A stretch of DNA of 64,000 nucleotides from Raillietiella orientalis (taxonomy: Eukaryota), in the NCBI GenBank assembly GCA_036172245.1, contig JAYWIR010000036.1:186001-250000 (forward strand), given 5' to 3'. The translations under genes and the position numbers were made by a program. The notes under the pieces are model-generated. The model had not been told where the DNA came from, did not search any database, and worked only from the letters and a program-made list of their open reading frames with translations. How positions within the stretch are numbered: the stretch's first letter is position 1; every line of letters begins with the position of its first letter. Of this stretch, positions 10,901-23,200 are shown one piece after another.

Positions 10901-13900
10901 CGGGACGAATTGGTCAGAAACGAATTTCTGGAATGTGTGGGACACGTGCACTGGCAGCTCGGATAACGAGCCCCTCGTCCGAGCAGGAAAAACAAAAGGA
11001 AGGAAGGAAAGACCGCGTCATCCGCGGTCTCCAGCCATCGAGAAACCTCCCGGTCCACGGAACGTGCGGTCCTTCGCCGAAGGGTTCTCAGGTCACATCC
11101 ACTCTCACCTTTTACTTTTCGATCCGAATCCAAGCCCGCAGCCTCCTCAGGTCTGCACCATGTTTTCCGGAACAAGCTCGACTCAGTTGGCGCTCGCAAG
11201 GGCCCGATCCAGCTGCTGTATCATCCCGCGTCCACAGGTCCACTTTTCTGTCCACAAACAAAACTTCCCACGAAGCCAAAAGGACACACACTCGCTCGCA
11301 CGCAGAGGCCACGCAGGCTTTTGTCACCAACGTTGCAGCAGCGAACGCGGAGCGCGGCGGCACCACTCCAGCTGCGAACCGCTCTCGCTCTGCCAAACAA
11401 AGCGGTGTGTGCGCGGGGTGACATCTTGCGTGGGGAAGGCCAAACTGCTCCGATGAATGGGGGGAGAGCTCGGCTCAATGAAACGCGCCAGCCGGGAGGA
11501 AAGAGAGAGGGGGAGGGGGAAGGGAGAAAGAGAAACGTGGAGTCGGCGGAAGTCTCCTGGGACGGCGCGTGGCGTCCACCTTGTTCCGGAGCTGGACCGT
11601 CCAAGTGGACGTCGGGCGTGAAGCGTTCATCTGCAACAGGCTCGACGGCCAGATGCTCGATGACTCCCGTACATGTGAAACCGAACGACAATCTTTTTCC
11701 GGTTCGTGACTGCTGTTTCGAACGTCTCGGCAAAATTCAGCACTCCCCACGAAAGTACGTAGCACCTAAAACGGTATGGTTCGAGCATGCGGGTGTTTTC
11801 AGGGAAAGAAAGTCGCAAATCATGTTCAGACCTCAGACTCGGCATCGGCCACCAAGCACTTCGGAGGTTTCTTTAACACCTTGTTGAAATTTCATTTACC
11901 CATTCGACATCCCCGGAAGGGAGTCTGCTTGCCGTTCGTGTGGTTTATACCGTCCTTTCGGATTGAGCACACGCAGTTGCCTTCACTTTATCGTTTTGGT
12001 TTGAGTCTTGGCATGTAAAGTTTCCTAACCAGAAGTACATGATCTCACGATCCGTACATCCTTTCCTTAATGGAAAGATTTTCCTCTCACAGCCTCTAAA
12101 TTGAGTGGCCATTCACTGTGGCATTCAGTGGCAAACTAGAGTGGGAGTGTCAGGGTTGAAAGGATTAGAAACAAGTAATATTGTAATGTGGAGTTTTCTG
12201 GATGTTTTGAAAGCCAGATTGATGTTGGTTGAAATTATGTATGATGTACTTTTCTGTACTGAAAGCATATGAGAATGTGGAAGCATTTGAGTACAAATAA
12301 GCAGGCAGTGTTTGGCTTCTGGGTGAAAGATGGCAACCTAAGCATTTTAAGCCCAATTCTTAAAATTTTGTTATTGCAACAAAAATAGGCTACCCTTCTA
12401 TATTGCTCTTAGCAGTTTCCATCATTTCTAGCAGCAAGGTTAACAAATACGTGTAAAATTGATCAAATTCTGGCTGGCAACTAGAATTTGATCAAACGAT
12501 CATGTCATTTGTAAAAGGCCTTCATTTTAAAAATGCTTCAAAAAAATTGAAACAGTTCATGATGCTATTAAAAAATGAATGTGGTGTGCAGTATTAGCTT
12601 ACTCCTTTGGTGAAAACCTTCTCAAGCAAAATAGTTTCCCATCACTTACATGTGAAGTTTAGTTAAAAGAACAAAAAATATAACATATTGCATACTGACA
12701 CATCCTTAAGGATTTTGCATGATTCGTTTTCTTATAGAAAGGAGTTTAAAGTAAATTTCTCAGTTGACAAATTTATCAATTCCTTGTACAGAATTCTTTT
12801 ACCAAATTACTTATATTAAAAGATTTTATAATTTGAATCCTTCAGTGGAAATTGTAGTTGTTAGTAACTGCAGTTTTTCTTTGATGGTTAAATTGAGGAG
12901 TATATCATGATGCAACCTTGTGGTGATTAAATCATGTTTTGAACTTAAGTGCACTGGCCTAAGCTAAAGTGATTATATAAATGCATTTCAGTGATTCACT
13001 TCCTCACAGTTATCTGCAATTTGTTTTCTAAAAACTAGTAGCAATGGAAGTGTTTGGAAAAAAATGAAAAAACAAGGTAAACATTATATTCAAAAGTATT
13101 CCTCTGGACCAATCAAGTGATTCCATAGATCATGTATTCATGTAAGTAGGCCCTCTGTAGAACTGAATTCAATTGTAAGCAGGTATTTTAACAAACGTAG
13201 TGAGAAACCATTTGGTGATTCATTAAGATACAAGTAACAACTGAAATCGCATATTTGGTTCCAAATGCATGCAGCCCATATTTTTGAAAGGACTTTTCTT
13301 TGACCCATTTTTCTAGAGAATTAAATCGTGCAAAATATTTTCCAGCATAGAACTTCTTGCATGGTGGCATGGTTTTTTAATTTAAGGAACACATAAATAA
13401 TGTAAATCTAAGAAAACTAAGCCAGAAGCTGCTCTTAATATATTATATTTTCTTGCATCATTATATAATAAAAATTTGCATTTAATGGTTTTCCAAGAAA
13501 ATCTTAAACTTTCATCCCATATTTAATTTTTTTTAATATGTGTTGTAATGGGTTTTAATGGACTTTTATATTTTAGCATTCCCCTAAGCTAAGTAACCTA
13601 TATAAAGTTGTAAGAATGAAAAGCTTGAGTAACCAATCTGTAGAGGAAAAAAAGAAAAAAAACTGTATATAAACTCATTCTTACAGTTAAGATTGAAAAT
13701 GAAAACAAAAGGGTTTTGAAATCAGGTTTTCTCATTCACTGCTGAACTTCTGCTTTAAACCTCATATATTACTTACTAATGTGATTGAAGTACTAAAGAA
13801 CTACTGCATGAAAGACATGTATCTGTCTTTATGACAACTGTTTCAAATAAAATCTTGGATGAGAGTTTAAGACTTTGTCACAACTATTGCATGGTTATTG

Positions 13901-15986
13901 ACAAAAACTATTGTGCAACACGTGTGGACCTTTGGAGAAATTTTCCAAGGTTCTGTAAAATAATGATGTGAAAGTATGATCCTTGGAAAATATTTGTTTT
14001 GTAATAAATATCATGAGGGAGAACTTTTCCAAACACATTTGAGGAGTAAAATTCATGTCGAGAATTTCATGTGATGTATCAGATTATTGTAGGTTTTTTT
14101 TTTTTTATAAACTATTGAAGGCCTTAGCCCTGATTGTAGTTACTTGTTTCCACAGTAAAATAGTAAGAAAATGAATTTTTCCGGACTGTAATCAAAAAGA
14201 TATCACTTCAAAGCACTCTTGGAAACATTTCAAACTTTTGTATTTTGAATTAGGTAGATTAATGCATTATGTAGTGAAATGATGCAAGATGTTCCCCCCC
14301 GTGAGCTGGCAGGTGTTTAAGAGAAAACTCAAAGCACATGAATGGAAGTACATTAAAGAGTACATAAAACCGTTTAAAAAGACTGTCCTGAGGGAAACAA
14401 ATATCGATGTTGTCTAGGTTGCCGAGGATTCTGAATCCAAAACAAGCTAAGGAAACGGACATGGTTGAATTTGTGCAGAACATAAGCTACAGTTTTTGAA
14501 ATATGTACAATCTTTCGCATCAGGTTCGGACTCCAGAATGAAAACCCTGTAAGGAAGAATTGTGCATTTGTAATGCTTAGCAGACGACAAACAAGATTGC
14601 GATTACAATCGAGCGATTTTTTCTTCTTCTTCCTCCACCGACTACCCCGTCTTGCAATTTCACCCGGAAAGAAATTGCGGCAAAGTATTTGGAGAAACTA
14701 AAAAGAATTCTTATGCATTAGAAATACAGCAACTTTACGTGTCTTGGATTTGACAACCCTGCTATCCATGCTGCTCGTGAAAGACTGCGTTTTTTTTTTT
14801 TTTTTTTTTTTTTTCTCAAAGAGTGACATGCAGCATTCTTTGAACCCTAGTATGAACCGTGACGTTCCGTAGAAAGATGGTCAGAGGAAAGTTGGATACC
14901 CCCTGGGTCCGCAGTTCCAATGTGAGAAATTTGGTAGATCAAGCCACGATATTAGTTTCTCCGGATACCTTCCTGCCTGACATTCACGGAAGCTTGTTGG
15001 CATTTTCTTCTGCATTTTGTCCATGCATGAGCAGCAGCCCACGTGCAGGAAATGAAAGTGGAGTTTCGCGGTGCCTGCAAGACGACACGAAAGGCTTTCG
15101 AAATTCCAATCGTTTTCTCACGACTTTTGTAAAAGCCCAAGCACTTTGTTCAAAACTTTTCGAGGCTTTCCAGTCGAAAGGATGCGCTTCAAAACACGAA
15201 AGTCATCGAAACAGCAGGGCTGCAACGGAAGCTTCTGATTAAAAAAGCGGGTGACAGGGTTGTGGCTTTTGTGCTGCAAGAATAATCCGAAGGGCAGGAA
15301 CACCACGAGAGATAGATGATGAGGACCAGCGAGGCGTGTCCAATAGAGAGGGGAAGGATTGCACCCCCAGATTGCCCGCGCTTCGAGGAAGTGCTGCCCC
15401 GAAAGTGAACTGCTGTGAACTAGAGTTTGAAAATCCCCCCCCCCCCCCGAGTTGTTATTTCCACACTTTTTGTGCATGAAACCACCTTAATGCTCCCATG
15501 AATGAATGCGTAGGGGTTTTCGTATTCCTGGTTGCAGCTGGTTGACTCGGGAACGTATGGCAGAGTGAACCGTATGGGCAGATTCTTTTCCATTTCGCGC
15601 CATCCGGAGAAGGGGAAAACTATGCACGCAGAGCCAACACAACTGCCGTGGCCTTTGCAACTGTCGCGTCCACACAACGGACAAGCGGAAGTCTCCCTCC
15701 AAGGAACCCAACACAATGACACCCTCCTATCACGCAAACGTATGCCTTTATAGCTGGAGGCTTTGACGTGCTAGTTCGATTCCTGATGCTCTGGCATCGA
15801 AAGGTTGCATTTAAAAAATGAAAAAGGAGTCTCATCTTACAAGAGCATGATAAAGGAGCGAAACAGACCCTTTGCTTCCGTGAAGGGTGCATTTTTACTG
15901 CTGAAAGTACATTTACCACTGCAAATATTATTGAAAAAGCAGTTAATGATCTTGGGCAGAATACAAGACCATAATTTATTTCTGTA

Positions 15987-15992
15987 TTTCAG
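15987..15992 (+). promoter_or_regulatory. TTTCAG acceptor 60 nt upstream of the ERCC8 ATG (5'UTR intron acceptor or SL trans-splice site)
   Basis: A U-rich tract (atttatttctgta) is followed by TTTCAG, the nematode consensus 3' splice site. Function is inferred. Confidence 0.35.
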
Positions 15993-16052
15993 GTATCTGT
16001 TGTTAATGTGTGGACATACAAGCAAGAACTCTCATTCACGTACCAAAAAAAA

Positions 16053-17221
16053 ATGTTGCGTAATTTGGAAAAAGTGGAAATGGGACTGTTGTCCCCATCA
16101 CATGTCCAGAAAGTTTTCTATTCACAACACTGTCAAAACTTGAAGCTCAATAACAGATTTGACTTTGAAATGGTGAATACATCAGCCATCAACCATCTGG
16201 ATATGGAACATAGCCATTGGCGTTAGTAAGTTCAAATCAGGGGCCCCTAAAAATTATGGCACACATAGTCTGCTTACTGGAAATGAGGATGGTAGCTTGA
16301 TCATTTACGATTTAGCCAACATGACTGGATCACTGATGCATACAGCTCGTGCTATTTGTCATCTCAAAAGGTAAGGTGGTACCATCAAAGTCATTAACAG
16401 AGTGCAGCAGACAAGCTCATAAAAAGGCTGTCAAGTGTGTCCAATGGTATCCTCAAGATCCGGGGATGTTTATATCCAGTGGGGCAGACTGCTGCTTAAA
16501 AGTGTGGGATACAAGTACACTACAGCCTATTGAAGTGTTTCCCACACAAGGTTGTTGTACTCAACATCACCTGTCAACTAGACATGCCTTGATTGCAATA
16601 GCAAGTGGCTCATCCAATGTTTCACTTGCAGACCTAAGAACAGGAGCGCACATTCAAGAATTACGCGGCCATTCAAGGCCTGTTCTTTGCTGTCAGTGGT
16701 CACCCAGGGATGACTTCTTGGTAGCAAGTGGAGGACTGGACAAGCAGCTTTTGCTTTGGGATGTACGGGCCAGCTTTTCATGTCTTGCGAAATTACAGTT
16801 TGAAGACAGAAATGCTATCCAGCAATCTTCTGATGGAATTCACAATGGTTGCATCACTGGACTGAAATTTCTTTCAGATGGGTTGAGAATCCTATCTGTA
16901 AGGCTGAACAGGTGCATCCAGATTTTCTGCATGCTAACCCAATGTAGTTACCAAGGAAGTAAAAAACCCATTCGTGGTGCAGATTATCAATGTACACAGG
17001 TGGCTTTAGCTGAAGATGGCATCCATCCATTGTTATTTGTCCCCTCAGCATGCACAATAGATGGTTTCGAGATGGACAGTGGTCTGCAATTCTGCAGCCT
17101 CGAGGCCCACTTTCAGCGTGTTCTCTGCTGCGCTTTTGATGAGTCCAGGCAGCAATTGTATAGTGGAGGGCAAGACTGCAATTTACTTGCTTGGGCCTGC
17201 GAGCCTATGGCGACTATATGA
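16053..17221 (+). CDS. ERCC8: DNA excision repair protein ERCC-8 / Cockayne syndrome A (CSA) WD40 protein, about 361 aa, 3 exons
   Basis: Exons are 16053-16225, 16269-16370 and 16411-17221 (an alternative in-frame acceptor gives 16408), with GT-AG introns of 43 and 40 nt and 1086 nt in frame. The N-terminus MLRNLEKVEMGLLSPSHVQK...LKLNNRFDFE...AINHLDME...YLLTGNEDGSLIIYDL parallels CSA (MLGFLSARQTGLEDP...LELNKDRDVE...GINTLDIE...YMLSGGSDGVIVLYDL). It continues with HKKAVKCVQWYPQDPGMFISSGADCCLKVWDT, LRGHSRPVLCCQWSPRDDFLVASGGLDKQLLLWDVR and QQLYSGGQDCNLLAW. Confidence 0.93.
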
Positions 17222-17267
17222 TGAGGCACATATGCCTTCTGCATTGACTAGAAATATCACAGTGATC

Positions 17268-20200
17268 TCAAATCTGAGTGCCTTTGGGGTGAGAAAACGG
17301 TATGATTTGGGATACATGATGTGTCCTAGACATGGAGCCCCTCACATAAGGAGCCAGCTTGTGAGCTGATATTGAATGACTGTCTCCGGATGTGAGTAAC
17401 TGGACATGTCTCTCCCAGGAAGCTTGGCTTTGCTCAATCTCTGCATAAATGGGGTCATCCCCTCTGATTTCACTATAGGTATGAACACCAGGAAATAACT
17501 GGCAATGTTGCTGGTGACTATAGGTGGGCTCTTGATGACTGCAACAAGCATCCACATGGCATAATTTACTTGGGACAAGAAGAGGGCAATGAGGGTGCAT
17601 AGGGTACATTTCAAGTCTTCGATCTATCCTAGGATGCCCCAACAGATCTACAGGCATGATACGTGGTGATTCTCCTTGCTCTGAACTTCCGTTTCCAGAA
17701 TCTCTTCCCAAAGAACATGATGAACACTCCTGCTTTTACAGCATGATGGCAGTATGCAAGCTGAAAAACTTACCTCTCCTTCTGCTACACGCTCATTTTT
17801 TCTTCTGACACTACTAGCACGTAAAGAAGGATAAAGATGCAACACAGCATGATTCACATTTGTGACAGGCTGCTGCTCCCTCTGCATCAAAATTGTACCT
17901 GACGGTGTCATCAGGGCTGGAGCTTTAGGTGCTGTACAATAACATGGAACAGAGCTACGCTCTGAAAAACACAGCAGCAACAAACAAGACTTATCTACGG
18001 ACTGCAAGCAGCGTTCCCTGATCTATCGTTTAAAAAAAGGGGGGCAGTTAGAATAATACTTTGAAAAAAAAAGTTTGGACTCACTTTGCTGTTCTTTTGA
18101 CAAGAGTACAGGATAACAGCAGGCATCAGAGATAAGTTAAGAATGACAAATAAATATGCCAGAGGCAGCCGGCGGACCAGAACAAATGCGAGTCCCGATG
18201 CCCATGTGGATAGTGTCAGTAGCACAAATATAGCAGCCATGCAGAATTTGCCTTGTGGCATTTCATCAATACTCATCCGATGGCAGGCAGTACAGGCACC
18301 AAGCAGGAAGAACAAAATTAGCATCTGATGTAAATAAATAGCCTCCGAGCATCTTCGAATGGGCTCTTACCATAACGACTATAATACTGGGACCCACAAA
18401 ACTAAAGATGAAGAATCTATCCAACTTCAGCCAACAGTGGGTTTTTCCACCAAATGCAAATGGATCCACAAGAGCCGTGATGGCTACAACAAGGGATGGA
18501 CAGCCATATGCCAAGATATACAGCCACCAAGACTGCAAGAATTCTCCGTCATCACGTACAGATGAATACAAAAGAACCACTGAAAAGACATGATGATGAC
18601 GACGAGCGCTCGCAACGCGGAGCCCTCTTTCTTTACCTTCCAGAAGCAACCAACAAATCAGGGATAGTAGCACCAATTCTAAACTACCTGCCAGCATCTG
18701 ACAGGCGAGCCCATTATCCACTTGGGACAGTCCAATTGCGAATAAAAGTTCCGATAAGAGGAGACAAATGCACAAATTTTGATGAACCACGTGCTGGACC
18801 TTGGGGAGGCGAAACACGGAGAGAAGAGTGACGATGCATATAAGGCACAGTACTGATACGGAACACGAAACATAAATTAAAAGCAGTCCGGTCGACGCGC
18901 TCTTGCTGCTGGACGGAGGAACTTCTTCCATGCGCAGAGCAAAGTTGTTCAGACGATAACAGTAGCAGATGGTATGACTGCTGTTCGAACTTACTGCCTG
19001 GCACCCATCGTGCGACCACCAACTGAAAGGGGAGAGGGATGGGGGGGGGAGAGATGCAATTGGGAGGAGGACCAGGATGCAGCAGTTACCGCGCTTCGTG
19101 ATCCCAGTAAACGCACGAGGGGCTCGATCCATTGGGAGGCTTCCTGTGCCGGAAAATCAACTGGACCGGCCTTTCCACTTTCACGTGCTTCCCGTAGCTC
19201 AGGGACGCTGACACCATCTGCGAGTTGATGACCGACGATTTGTCAAGGAAATCTCCCAGCGTGCGATACGCGAAAAACGTAAGGCGCGTCAGGCCGTTGC
19301 GGCTGTTCTCTGAAATGACGTCGGGGGGCAGGATGAGAGCCGCATCGCTCCAGAAATCATTTCTTCTGCCAGCAGGGAAGAACACCGACCCGGCTTGCAC
19401 GGAGTGCATGATCAACACAGACAACACTTCATTGAGCAGGAAGAAAAGAAAGAAAAAAAAAAACGGGGCATAAGAGGGAACACGGAACGCGCATTTCACT
19501 CACAGATGTTGGACTCTTCGAACGCCAACTGGCGCCCTAGACCAAGGACGTTGGCAAGAAGCGACGCGTTTTCCTCAAGGCCGACGAGCATGTCGCTGGC
19601 TGCCTTTTTCTGCTGCTGCGGGGAAAGGTCATTCCACGCATCCCTCTGGGTCTCCTCGAGGAGGTTGCTGCTGGCACGAACGACCATCTGCACCAGCTCG
19701 ATCACCAGCTCCGTGTCCACGTGACCGGAAAGATCCCACGTCAGCTGGGATGCGACGTGATTGAGCACGTCGATGGCGGAAAGGAGGTCACCGCCGTGGA
19801 GGTGCTTGCTGGCGGCCACCAACACAAGATCGGCAGCCACGCTCATCACAGCCTCCCCGTTTTGCAGCTGCACAGGCAGTTGTTGTTTCCCACGGAATAA
19901 CCCCCGCCACGGTTTACCCTGTTCTCCAGACTGGTGAGCCAGGCCGACTTGCACTGGCTGAGATTGGGATAAGGGGTCTTCCAGTCTCCCACGCCGCACT
20001 GCCAGTACGCGTTTCCGGTGGCTCCACTGGGGCAGGGCTGCGTAAGCGTCTCACCGAAACCAGTCCACATCCACATCAGCCCTCTTGCCACTTTGGGGGA
20101 ACACCCTTCTTCAGGTACGGTTACCGAAAGGTTCCAAACTGAACGGAAGAACCGCAACAGTAAGCACCACAGGGAACGGAAGAACCCGATGCTGTCGAGC

Positions 20201-23200
20201 TCTCACCATCGGCGGCGCTGCTCTCCTCCTGGCGTACACCTTCCGAGTTTGACAGGAAATGAGGGTGCAACGCGGATGTGCGTTGCCTCGGCACTTCGGT
20301 AGCCAATACTCTCTTGATGTCGTCGGGCAAACGTATCGTAATGGCTGACGTGAAGGTCGTGGGCTTTGGCGTTGTCAGGACGGAAGTGCTTGGAATGAAC
20401 TCGGAAACTGCCGTTTCCTGAGCTGAGTGTTTCGACGGCTCCGTAGTGTTGAACGCTACAGAATCCGCAGATGCGTAGTGCAAAGAAGACGGCATCACTG
20501 CAGCTACTGTTCTTTCATGAGTAGACGCTATCAAGAATGAAAAGCCAGCAATGAAAAATCGGGAGGAAACAGGAAAAGGAGGAGCACCCAGTGGAAGAAT
20601 TTCATGCAAAGAAGTAGAAAAGAGGATCAAAGGACCAATACCTGAAATGCAGAGGAAATGAGTCTCTAAGTATTTTCGAGTGCCTGGGCATGGATCTTCG
20701 AAAAAAGAGGAACTGGCGTCAACTTCACAGTGGCCTCGAAAGCTACATCTGGTCATACAACATGAATGAAATCAAGAGAACCACGACAGAATATTATTTC
20801 TGCATATATACATATACGTGTGTGTGCGTGTGTGTGTGTGTGTCTTTCCAAACAGCAATTCTAAGCAGCGGTCCGGCGGCGTCCATGGTTTGGTTTCGAG
20901 GAACGATTTCATCTTTCTTTTCTCTTTTTTGTTGCTGTTGTTTTTAAAGACTACATTTTATGAGATTCTGAACGTTTCGTTTCCGTCTGACCAAAGGGAA
21001 CCGTGCAGAAGGGGGAAAACACTTCAGGTGCGTGTCCGTGGAAGAAGACGGGAAACGAAGCTGTACCTCCTATGCGTCCTTCGCCGACGCAGAAATGCAG
21101 AAGAGCACGGCGTACGGTGCCTACGATTCACGGAATGCAACCAGGAAGGACTTGAGGTGCTGATATTCCCGTGAGGAACGCGTTTTTGCCCGGAAAAGGG
21201 CACATCAGGATGGGGAGAAAAAAAAAAAAAAAAATGTTAGCGAATGGAAAGTTAGTGGAAACAAAGAAACCCGAATGCAGAGCTCCCGCACAATGGAGAC
21301 CATACCAACCTATGATGCACGCATAATGGACTTCTATGTACTTGAACGTTCCCGGGCAAGGATCGGCAAACAGGTTACTGCTGACGTGCATGATACAACT
21401 ACCTTTATATCCACATCTGATCACAGAAGACAACATAAAAAAAGGAATGCACACAACACACATCCTTCACCACACAGACTGCAACAACATGCTTGCACAC
21501 AAACAACGGCCACCTACGAGATCCTTGTTCACCGAGGGCAGCACCGGAGGTCCCCCAAAGAAGTCGCGCACAAAAAAAAAAGAAAAACCTCGGAGTCGTC
21601 GTGGGAAAACTTACGATCTTCCAGAAAGCGTGCAGGGAAGCAGAAACTGAAGTACAACTTACACGAGAAGCTTTCAGGAAAAGGAAGGAAGGAAGGAAGG
21701 AGATCGAACTGTCCAAGTGACCACGGACGCTGACCCACAAGCTCCAATGCTTCCCGAACTATGCGCCAAATCATGCACACTACACGTCTAGGTGCTCGGG
21801 CAAGGACGTCCTCGTATTAAGGGGCCGTTGCCATCCTCGATGTTCGCACCGACGGGGGACGAAGGCCCGAAGCTTTCAAAAAAAAAAAACCCGCGCGCCC
21901 AGGATGCTGATTTCTTTCAGCTACGCGTGCGAGCAGATCTTCTTCGCACGCTGCCGCCGCCGCCAATGGCGTCAGGGAGCGCGTGCGAACTCGTTGGGGA
22001 AGATCACAGCAGGCACCTCGCAACGTCACGCGCAGATCACCCTTCATCCCGCCGTTGTCATGTCTTTCGCCCGTTTTCTGTCTCATCACTCCGCGGAGGA
22101 CCACGGTTGCTTCGTCTTCTGCCCTTCCGCCCCGCCTTCCTGCCAGACCCGCAAGGTCCGCCCTGCCCTGCGAGCGGCGATGACGCAACAATGGAAAGGC
22201 GAGCTAAATCTGGAAAAGCATCGTTTCTTCCGCGCCCGTACTTTGGCATACACCACCATTAAATAACGAGGAGGAATGACCTTTCGTTCGAACCTGCAAG
22301 CACTCATTAAGAAGCCAAAAAAAAAAAAAAAAGAAAGAAAGAAAAGGCAAAACGCAAGAAAACGGAACCAGGAGTGCCAGTGGAAAGCAACAGCAACGGG
22401 TACGCATTTCCGTGCTTGGGGGGTGCTCACCTGCAAGGGACTCGCTGGGGTCGCATACGAATTGAAGTAACACCTTCAGAGAGTGTTCCCTCAAATGGGC
22501 GCGCGGAGCAGAAGGGTGGGAGGGCGAAGGAGAAGGGGGGTGGACAGAGAAGCAGCTCGAGCACCAACCGCGGCATCTTCCTGCTCCAGGAAAACGGGAG
22601 AAAAAAAAGAAAAAAAAAAAACCTGACGCACTGACCTCTTGCTCAACACGGACAGGGTATCTGGATACATGCAATTCACACTCCAGTCGGTGTTGCCGTG
22701 GTTATTGCAGATCGTGATCGAGAATCGACCGTAATTGGCCCGAATCAACTGTATCACATAGTCTTCTTCGCACTCCAGTCTAAGACGGCTGCCCTCGCAG
22801 GCATATGCGGTCCGGTATTTTGATGCATCTAAGGAGAAAGAAAGAAAAGAAAGAAGACAAAAAAAACACATGCGTTTTCAAACAAATCGAATTTAAGAAA
22901 CCAATGGAGACAAATCTGCTATTGAATTTTACGCATGCACGCGGCCCCGTACAACATAAAAGATGAGTAATCGGTTCTTCTGGTACCACATTTTCGTCTG
23001 ACCGAACGCGGCACAAGAGCAGCAGGATGAACTAAAAAAACAACAGCAGCAGCAGCAGCAAAAACAAAAAAAAAAAAAGAGAGAGAGAGAAAGGCTCCAC
23101 AAAATCCCACGGTCGTGCCCATGGTCCCAGCCATGCGCATCATCCTCAAACAGCACCGAGTAACGACAAGACGAAACGGTCATCCGGTCAATGCATCATG

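Follow-up and report, generated by a model that had tools for sequence, protein, structure and literature searches.

In self-cleaving adhesion GPCRs, a histidine deprotonates the hydroxyl of a serine or threonine, and an N-O acyl shift leads to cleavage (PMC13062082). The aromatic residue that stacks against this histidine is F803 in rat ADGRL1, where the F803Y substitution is described as tolerated (PMC13062082). Fly Cirl is efficiently self-cleaved, and H>A and T>A substitutions each abolish cleavage; the uncleaved H>A receptor is reported to be fully mechanosensitive and the T>A receptor to be null in mechanosensation (PMC5548486). The Tollo-linked neurogenesis role of fly Cirl is described as requiring cleavage in a review that also covers 7TM-independent, ectodomain-only functions of latrophilins (PMC13197933). 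In ADGRL3, replacing the leucine at Stachel position +6 with alanine reportedly causes partial impairment, which becomes full when combined with a change at M+7 (PMC11849108). Debate continues over whether adhesion GPCRs depend on cutting themselves and on releasing a tethered agonist (PMC13197933; PMC11849108 versus PMC5548486).

Vertebrate adhesion GPCRs as a whole have been reported as non-canonical in 30.6% of 13,611 sequences, with none among ADGRL1, 2 and 3 (0/311, 0/706 and 0/455; 0/1,472 in total) (PMC13470171). The same source gives leucine as the modal residue at position 0.50 (+6) in every group except E1 (Ile) and V1 (Tyr), including the non-cleavable groups A3, B1-3, C3, F2 and F4, where it is modal at 95.7-100% (PMC13470171).

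Within the window (the whole 64,000-nt stretch of Raillietiella orientalis DNA analyzed), we identified an intact minus-strand latrophilin/Cirl gene encoding lectin, HormR and GAIN domains and seven transmembrane (TM) helices (Table 1). Nine exons running from 22828 to 18085, with GT-AG introns throughout, make up a frame of 792 codons free of stops, whichever of two alternative lectin exons is used. When both are joined in, the frame breaks at codon 126, so that the two, which are identical at 18 of 34 residues, are mutually exclusive by frame. Domain profiles PF02140 (both lectin halves), PF02793, PF16489, PF01825 and PF00002 score above cut-off, the named matches of the lectin are arthropod Cirl almost throughout, and hydropathy gives seven helices after the GPS, the same as in two canonical controls. 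We saw no olfactomedin domain between the lectin and HormR domains. A tail motif of the DPIYAEIE type, present in 154 of 204 full-length canonical rows, is kept in this gene and, as EPVYEEID, in the neighboring paralogue described below. No signal-peptide (5') exon was found for the window copy. By every structural criterion tested, the gene is a latrophilin; its sequence departs from the self-cleaving site and from the F-x-x-L-M core.

Table 1. Predicted features of the window latrophilin and its neighbor (positions are those of the window unless a contig is named).
Feature	Position	Strand	Basis or remark
N-terminal half of SUEL/RBL lectin domain	22636..22828	-	at most 76% identity to arthropod Cirl among matches listed
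Alternative exon 1, C-terminal lectin half, 107 nt	21310..21416	-	Pfam, exon model
Alternative exon 2, C-terminal lectin half, 107 nt	20642..20748	-	Pfam, exon model
Ser/Thr/Pro-rich linker exon	20207..20527	-	predicted boundaries
HormR (HRM) domain exon	19918..20138	-	Pfam, exon model
GAIN subdomain A exon	19504..19867	-	Pfam, exon model
GAIN subdomain B exon, CVYW at end; Tyr 19109-19107 at His-stacking position	19090..19426	-	
Exon with second GPS half, Stachel, TM1-TM3; Glu GAA 18679-18677 in TM3	18637..19022	-	
GPS triad R(-2) L(-1) / N(+1); canonical H-L/T	18947..18955	-	codon translation, Pfam, ADGRL3 alignment
Stachel core NNFALRM	18929..18949	-	F+3, A+4, M+7 kept; +1 Asn; +6 Arg
Exon with TM3 end, TM4, ECL2 (CW kept), TM5 start	18371..18579	-	
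Exon with TM5 end, TM6 (toggle Trp kept), TM7 (kink Gly to Met)	18085..18324	-	
Cytoplasmic tail exons, 8 candidate splice chains	17268..18022	-	last frame with DPIYAEIE
Tandem latrophilin paralogue	C36:184358-181571 (locus to 181110)	-	same strand; six exons, open frame, seven helices

The surroundings of the gene have features of their own. A GC-poor block spans window positions 12000-18600 (32-44% GC versus 50-68% elsewhere), and GC3 of the latrophilin exons drops from 0.78 to about 0.45 toward it. An intronless ERCC8/CSA-like WD40 frame lies at 16337-17221 on the plus strand (E 1.6e-52 to human ERCC-8). Its end lies 47 bp short of position 17268, the predicted stop of the latrophilin, and the two genes, which converge, probably share part of their 3' UTRs. 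A Pfam scan of 139 other window ORFs, picked by a crude coding score, gave no family.

Across the site, the minus-strand codons read TGC (18967-65, C), TAC (Y), TGT (C), TAT (Y), CGT (18955-53, R), CTG (18952-50, L), AAC (18949-47, N), AAC (N), TTT (F), GCT (A), CTG (L), CGC (18934-18932, R at +6, position 0.50) and ATG (18931-29, M). The site is thus RL/NNFALRM, with His-2 replaced by Arg, Thr+1 by Asn and Leu+6 by Arg, and each of the three changed codons is one base from a canonical codon. The frame that contains it scores 30.8 bits to Pfam GPS (cut-off 22.5) and 68 bits to 7tm_2. In the alignment to human ADGRL3, the best solved relative (E 1e-32), H-L-T aligns with R-L-N and the leucine before methionine with the arginine. 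The Arg-Leu-Asn codons at 18955-18947 of the original prediction proved right in coordinates and residues on codon-by-codon translation, as did its Stachel segment with arginine before methionine on translation and ADGRL3 alignment. Its claim that the triad is lost stands for His-2 and Thr+1 but not for Leu-1, which is retained, so two of the three residues are lost. A single-sequence AlphaFold model of the GPS-TM2 stretch, with a pLDDT of 67 that is too low to build on, places strands on either side of the site.

The window copy therefore lacks His-2 and a Ser/Thr at +1 and keeps an aromatic at the His-stacking position, where spacing matches a tyrosine to F803 of rat ADGRL1. Asparagine has no hydroxyl or thiol to serve as nucleophile. 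With neither base nor nucleophile, the protein is expected to stay one chain, canonical self-cleavage being very unlikely. The residues present, together with the published mutagenesis of fly Cirl and ADGRB3, support the earlier claim that this latrophilin is uncleavable, as far as the canonical mechanism goes: ADGRB3, which carries RL/S, is uncleaved in HEK cells, and changing R to H restores 6.5% only (PMC13062082). The further claim of a weakened tethered agonist is plausible from the motif, which keeps F and M of the F-x-x-L-M core; the loss seen with the single L+6 to Ala change in ADGRL3 is described as partial, not total (PMC11849108). No alternative exon that could supply a canonical GPS turned up when all six frames of the window and of three 10-kb flanks were scanned; the two matches obtained lacked the Cys scaffold and are put down to chance.

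We compared the site with 224 arthropod Cirl rows (the best 120 of 439 and the best 120 of 197), an isoform-redundant and insect-heavy set with a parsable GPS in 192 rows and no GPS in 32 (106 distinct strings). HL/T was present in 192/192; position +6 was Leu in 191, Thr in one (Cyprideis) and never Arg or Lys. A wider set comprised the best 150 of 1,573 representatives at 50% identity, of which 145 could be parsed and 46 were lectin-bearing. H-x-S/T was absent from 10 of the 145. Among the lectin-bearing 46, the site was H-x-T/S in 44, HL/G in one (Varroa) and NL/R in one (Tachypleus), and +6 was Leu in 36, Ile in six, Met in two, Val in one and Ser in one, with no Arg or Lys. Arginine at +6 did occur in P0206, a non-lectin protein and one of the five unparsed representatives. 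These arthropod counts and the vertebrate ones bear out the prediction that such a site is unusual for the family, though Tachypleus and Varroa make it not unique. Judged from sequence motifs, loss of cleavage is common in the adhesion GPCR class but seldom met in latrophilins; a basic +6 is even less frequent.

Neither of our searches found a close relative: the best GPS-TM5 identity was 43% among the best 150 of the 1,573 representatives, and a word-based search returned 19 distant rows only. No report of a naturally non-cleavable arthropod latrophilin was found in the literature searched, which was mostly without subscription papers. The Cyprideis torosa latrophilin (P0399) keeps HL/T and has Thr+6 and Ser+7 in its Stachel, which could reflect either a mistake in the gene model or a Stachel core that is labile near this lineage.

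A tandem latrophilin paralogue adjoins the window just beyond its start, about 22 kb from the window copy. Its site reads C-T-C-D-Y-L-T-T-F-A-L-K-M: His-2 is replaced by Tyr, Thr+1 is kept and Leu+6 is replaced by Lys, and the His-stacking position, mapped by spacing, is Ile. It has a single lectin C-half exon and, from linker to TM7, three introns fewer than the window copy. With the nucleophile kept and the base and stacking aromatic lost, we infer that it would at best be cut very slowly. In both copies, then, His-2 is gone and +6 is basic, by different codons; at -2, a single base change, at a different codon position in each gene, separates the Arg and Tyr codons from a His codon.

We searched the genome with eight queries: the gene's own GPS-TM and lectin exons, the Pfam profiles GPS, GAIN, 7tm_2 and SUEL, and two canonical Cirl proteins. 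No third latrophilin was found by any of them (top candidates scored; 491-contig assembly, completeness not stated), and the expected class B receptors were recovered. A distant third GAIN-type receptor, possibly Mayo/Ketchup-like, lies at C63:269653-273846 (+) with a canonical HL/TNFALLL and no lectin match there. Since the same searches reached this HL/T receptor, they should also have picked up any canonical Cirl that the assembly contains. The case is strongest in that neither of the latrophilin copies found in this genome is canonical at -2 or at +6; that the neighbor is also non-canonical and that no canonical latrophilin was found were missing from the original prediction. The paralogue is changed likewise, with YL/T, Lys+6 and the loss of pocket residues, which makes it probable that the animal is without a self-cleaving latrophilin. 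As both copies found lack His-2 and the peptide leucine, the animal may do without the family's usual activation route.

The genome searches also returned other receptors. A Flamingo/CELSR-like gene at C16 about 1608565-1609104 (-) has the GPS region C-T-C-Q-L-R-L-P-V-A-V-V, which appears to lack H-x-S/T and F+3 and is unmatched by Pfam GPS. Only two TIR matches were returned (C27:1887235 and C9:861442), both in long single-frame LRR-TIR Toll genes; the C9 gene presumably resembles the long-Toll (Toll-6/7/8) type, the class of Tollo, Cirl's fly partner. Identical GPCR frames, which we take to be Methuselah-like, occur at C93:227078 and C99:177701, which suggests uncollapsed haplotigs or a recent duplication.

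Both latrophilin copies fell inside pancrustacean Cirl, next to ostracods, in three trees, with support of 94/93 (unstarred) for the grouping with Darwinula and Cyprideis; the nearest row is the Darwinula latrophilin, at 41-42% identity. A grouping of both copies with chelicerates was rejected (p-AU 1.5e-6). The window copy and paralogue were not recovered as one clade, nor was that grouping rejected (p-AU 0.47). Their branch lengths are 1.2 and 1.7 changes per site, and because both branches are long, the exact sister group is unsure and relaxed selection is possible. The Tachypleus and Varroa sequences fall in a separate clade, so the losses here are independent of theirs.

To weigh targeted loss against general decay, we took the alignment columns in which 36 arthropod latrophilins are conserved to 90% or more. 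Of these near-invariant columns, 114/124 are kept in the window copy and 101/124 in the paralogue, compared with 123/125 in Darwinula and 112/127 in Drosophila sechellia Cirl; by this sequence measure the window copy is no more decayed than fly Cirl. It also keeps 37 of 39 invariant lectin sites. H-2 and T+1 are two of its 10 near-invariant losses (hypergeometric p about 0.006), a value weakened because it is post hoc and because loss of one residue frees the other. General decay as sole cause is not favored by these counts for the window copy and is possible for the paralogue.

Within the 7TM domain (position numbers assigned from the alignment, counts from 55 aligned relatives), the window copy keeps Trp 45.51, Trp 6.53, Phe 7.42, His 2.50 and Glu 3.50, and changes Gly 7.50 to Met (Gly in 53/55) and Phe 3.44 to Ile (Phe in 52/55). 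Position 3.37 in TM3 is Glu, where relatives have His (48), Gln (5), Tyr (1) or Asp (1). Such positions are described as the Stachel pocket and activation kinks (bioRxiv 10.64898/2026.03.05.709805). The window copy lacks both glycines, 6.50 and 7.50, of which 6.50 is variable in arthropods. The paralogue has lost Trp 6.53 (to Val; Trp in 53/55), Phe 7.42 (to Leu; Phe in 55/55), His 2.50 and Glu 2.60, and among W45.51, W6.53, F7.42, G6.50 and G7.50 keeps only W45.51 and G7.50.

Set beside known receptors, the window gene shares with arthropod Cirl (Drosophila, Darwinula) the RBL lectin, HormR, GAIN, 7TM and tail motif and the apparent lack of an olfactomedin domain, and differs in its site: the 192 parsed arthropod rows are all HL/T with no basic +6, and fly Cirl is efficiently self-cleaved (PMC5548486). 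Tachypleus XP_076371339 and Varroa XP_022656988 are likewise lectin-bearing with a catalytic GPS residue lost, but their +6 residues are hydrophobic (Ile and Leu, respectively) and Tachypleus has canonical sisters. ADGRB1 and ADGRB3 also have Arg-2 and are uncleaved in HEK cells (PMC13062082); unlike the window copy, they belong to another subfamily, keep the Ser nucleophile and have Leu 0.50 at 100% (PMC13470171). CELSR1/3, of yet another subfamily, offer a parallel in coupling to Gs without cleavage or an intact tethered agonist (PMC10592476). ADGRV1, with a divergent Stachel position 6, a lost kink glycine and weak constitutive, Stachel-independent Gi coupling (bioRxiv 10.64898/2026.03.05.709805), would by analogy serve best as a model of how the window copy functions, although its +6 is Tyr and not basic, it loses Gly 6.50 and not 7.50, it mostly keeps H-x-S, and its ectodomain is unrelated.

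Our preferred reading, with a probability of about 0.55, is that the window gene encodes a single-chain adhesion or scaffold latrophilin of a pancrustacean, with at most weak, Stachel-independent signaling. The reading frame is unbroken, and neither catalytic residue is left. The GAIN domain would still fold without self-cleavage; because it could not cut itself, the Stachel strand would stay covalently locked inside it and no ectodomain would be released at the GPS. The Stachel would no longer be a proper agonist, its agonism probably weak or absent, because a charged +6 would sit where leucine packs between two tryptophans and because the TM7 kink glycine 7.50 is lost. The receptor would serve in adhesion and scaffolding by means of its cytoplasmic tail and its conserved ectodomain (lectin, HormR, GAIN), a role that fits because selection appears still to hold ectodomain, seven helices and tail, and it could retain weak constitutive signaling as in ADGRV1 or CELSR1/3. 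A likely order would be loss of the Stachel first, after which each copy was free to lose His-2 separately. Motif loss is no proof of silence, because Drosophila Cirl is equally diverged in its 7TM yet signals. The kept residues of the Stachel pocket also count against this reading, as do the mechanosensation lost in fly T>A and the cleavage-dependent Tollo role, functions that an animal left without a cleavable copy would by analogy lack.

An uncleaved receptor might still depend on its Stachel, through a non-dissociation route with a re-tuned peptide and pocket in which Arg+6 is possibly paired with the TM3 glutamate. The window copy does keep much of the pocket, including its aromatics, as well as F+3, A+4 and M+7, and ADGRL3 L+6 mutants are described as partial agonists; Glu 3.37 is opposite in charge to Arg+6, uncleaved fly H>A Cirl is fully mechanosensitive (PMC5548486), and worm LAT-1 is described as requiring the GPS and not cleavage. 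The pairing is putative, however, and we found no paper on a 3.37/+6 contact. Loss of Gly 7.50, a paralogue in which Lys+6 has no matching Glu and Trp 6.53 is gone, and the null phenotype of fly T>A (PMC5548486) leave Stachel dependence unlikely. That both genes are dispensable duplicates, drifting under relaxed selection while a canonical latrophilin is missing from the assembly, has a precedent in Tachypleus, where the NL/R copy stands beside at least two HL/T copies, and would suit the long branches, the paralogue's eroded near-invariant sites and a 491-contig assembly whose completeness is not stated. We consider it distinctly unlikely, given that eight queries recovered the expected class B receptors and, among the top candidates scored, no third copy, and that the paired alternative lectin exons, intact frame and conserved lectin sites make the window copy fit a main gene and not a spare.

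Shedding by other means, with a sheddase acting elsewhere or slow Asn-driven breakage near the site, would change the chemistry and leave the biology as it was. CTF-size fragments of RL/S ADGRB1/B3 have been seen in brain (PMC13062082), a cleavage-deficient ADGRL3 mutant is described as shedding about 20% as much NTF, and ADGRA3 is reportedly cut away from its GPS; against this, no specific alternative site is apparent in the sequence, the Asn route is speculative, and the basic +6 of both copies is left unexplained, so that we rate such shedding highly improbable. Scarcely credible is a sequencing or assembly error, or repair at the RNA level by an alternative exon or editing. The codons come from the assembly and each lies one base from a canonical codon, but three separate codons are involved, and a second gene departs from the canonical site at -2 and +6 as well, through other codons. 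The GPS exon has only 67 and 57 nt of intron on its two sides, and a six-frame scan of the window and 30 kb of flank gave no canonical GPS; A-to-I editing could turn AAC into AGC (Ser) but never CGT into a His codon.

The window case, a single-chain latrophilin on our preferred reading, is real, intact and rare as read from DNA; its weight is limited because non-cleavable adhesion GPCRs are common in other subfamilies and because both copies come to us as genomic sequence. Latrophilins are among the most strictly cleavable groups, so two natural, intact copies that lack the site are ready-made reagents. Swapping their GPS/Stachel into fly Cirl would allow the mechanosensory role, which is independent of cleavage, to be scored as well as the Tollo role, which depends on it. 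With both copies expressed and uncut and a basic +6 in each, this would be a lineage without any self-cleaving, Stachel-activated latrophilin, a proposition that we hold tentatively, with the odds somewhat against it. If true, it would amount to a natural double knock-in, an arthropod nervous system built with latrophilins that neither shed their NTF nor use the canonical agonist; alternatively, it would provide the first charge-re-paired Stachel and pocket.
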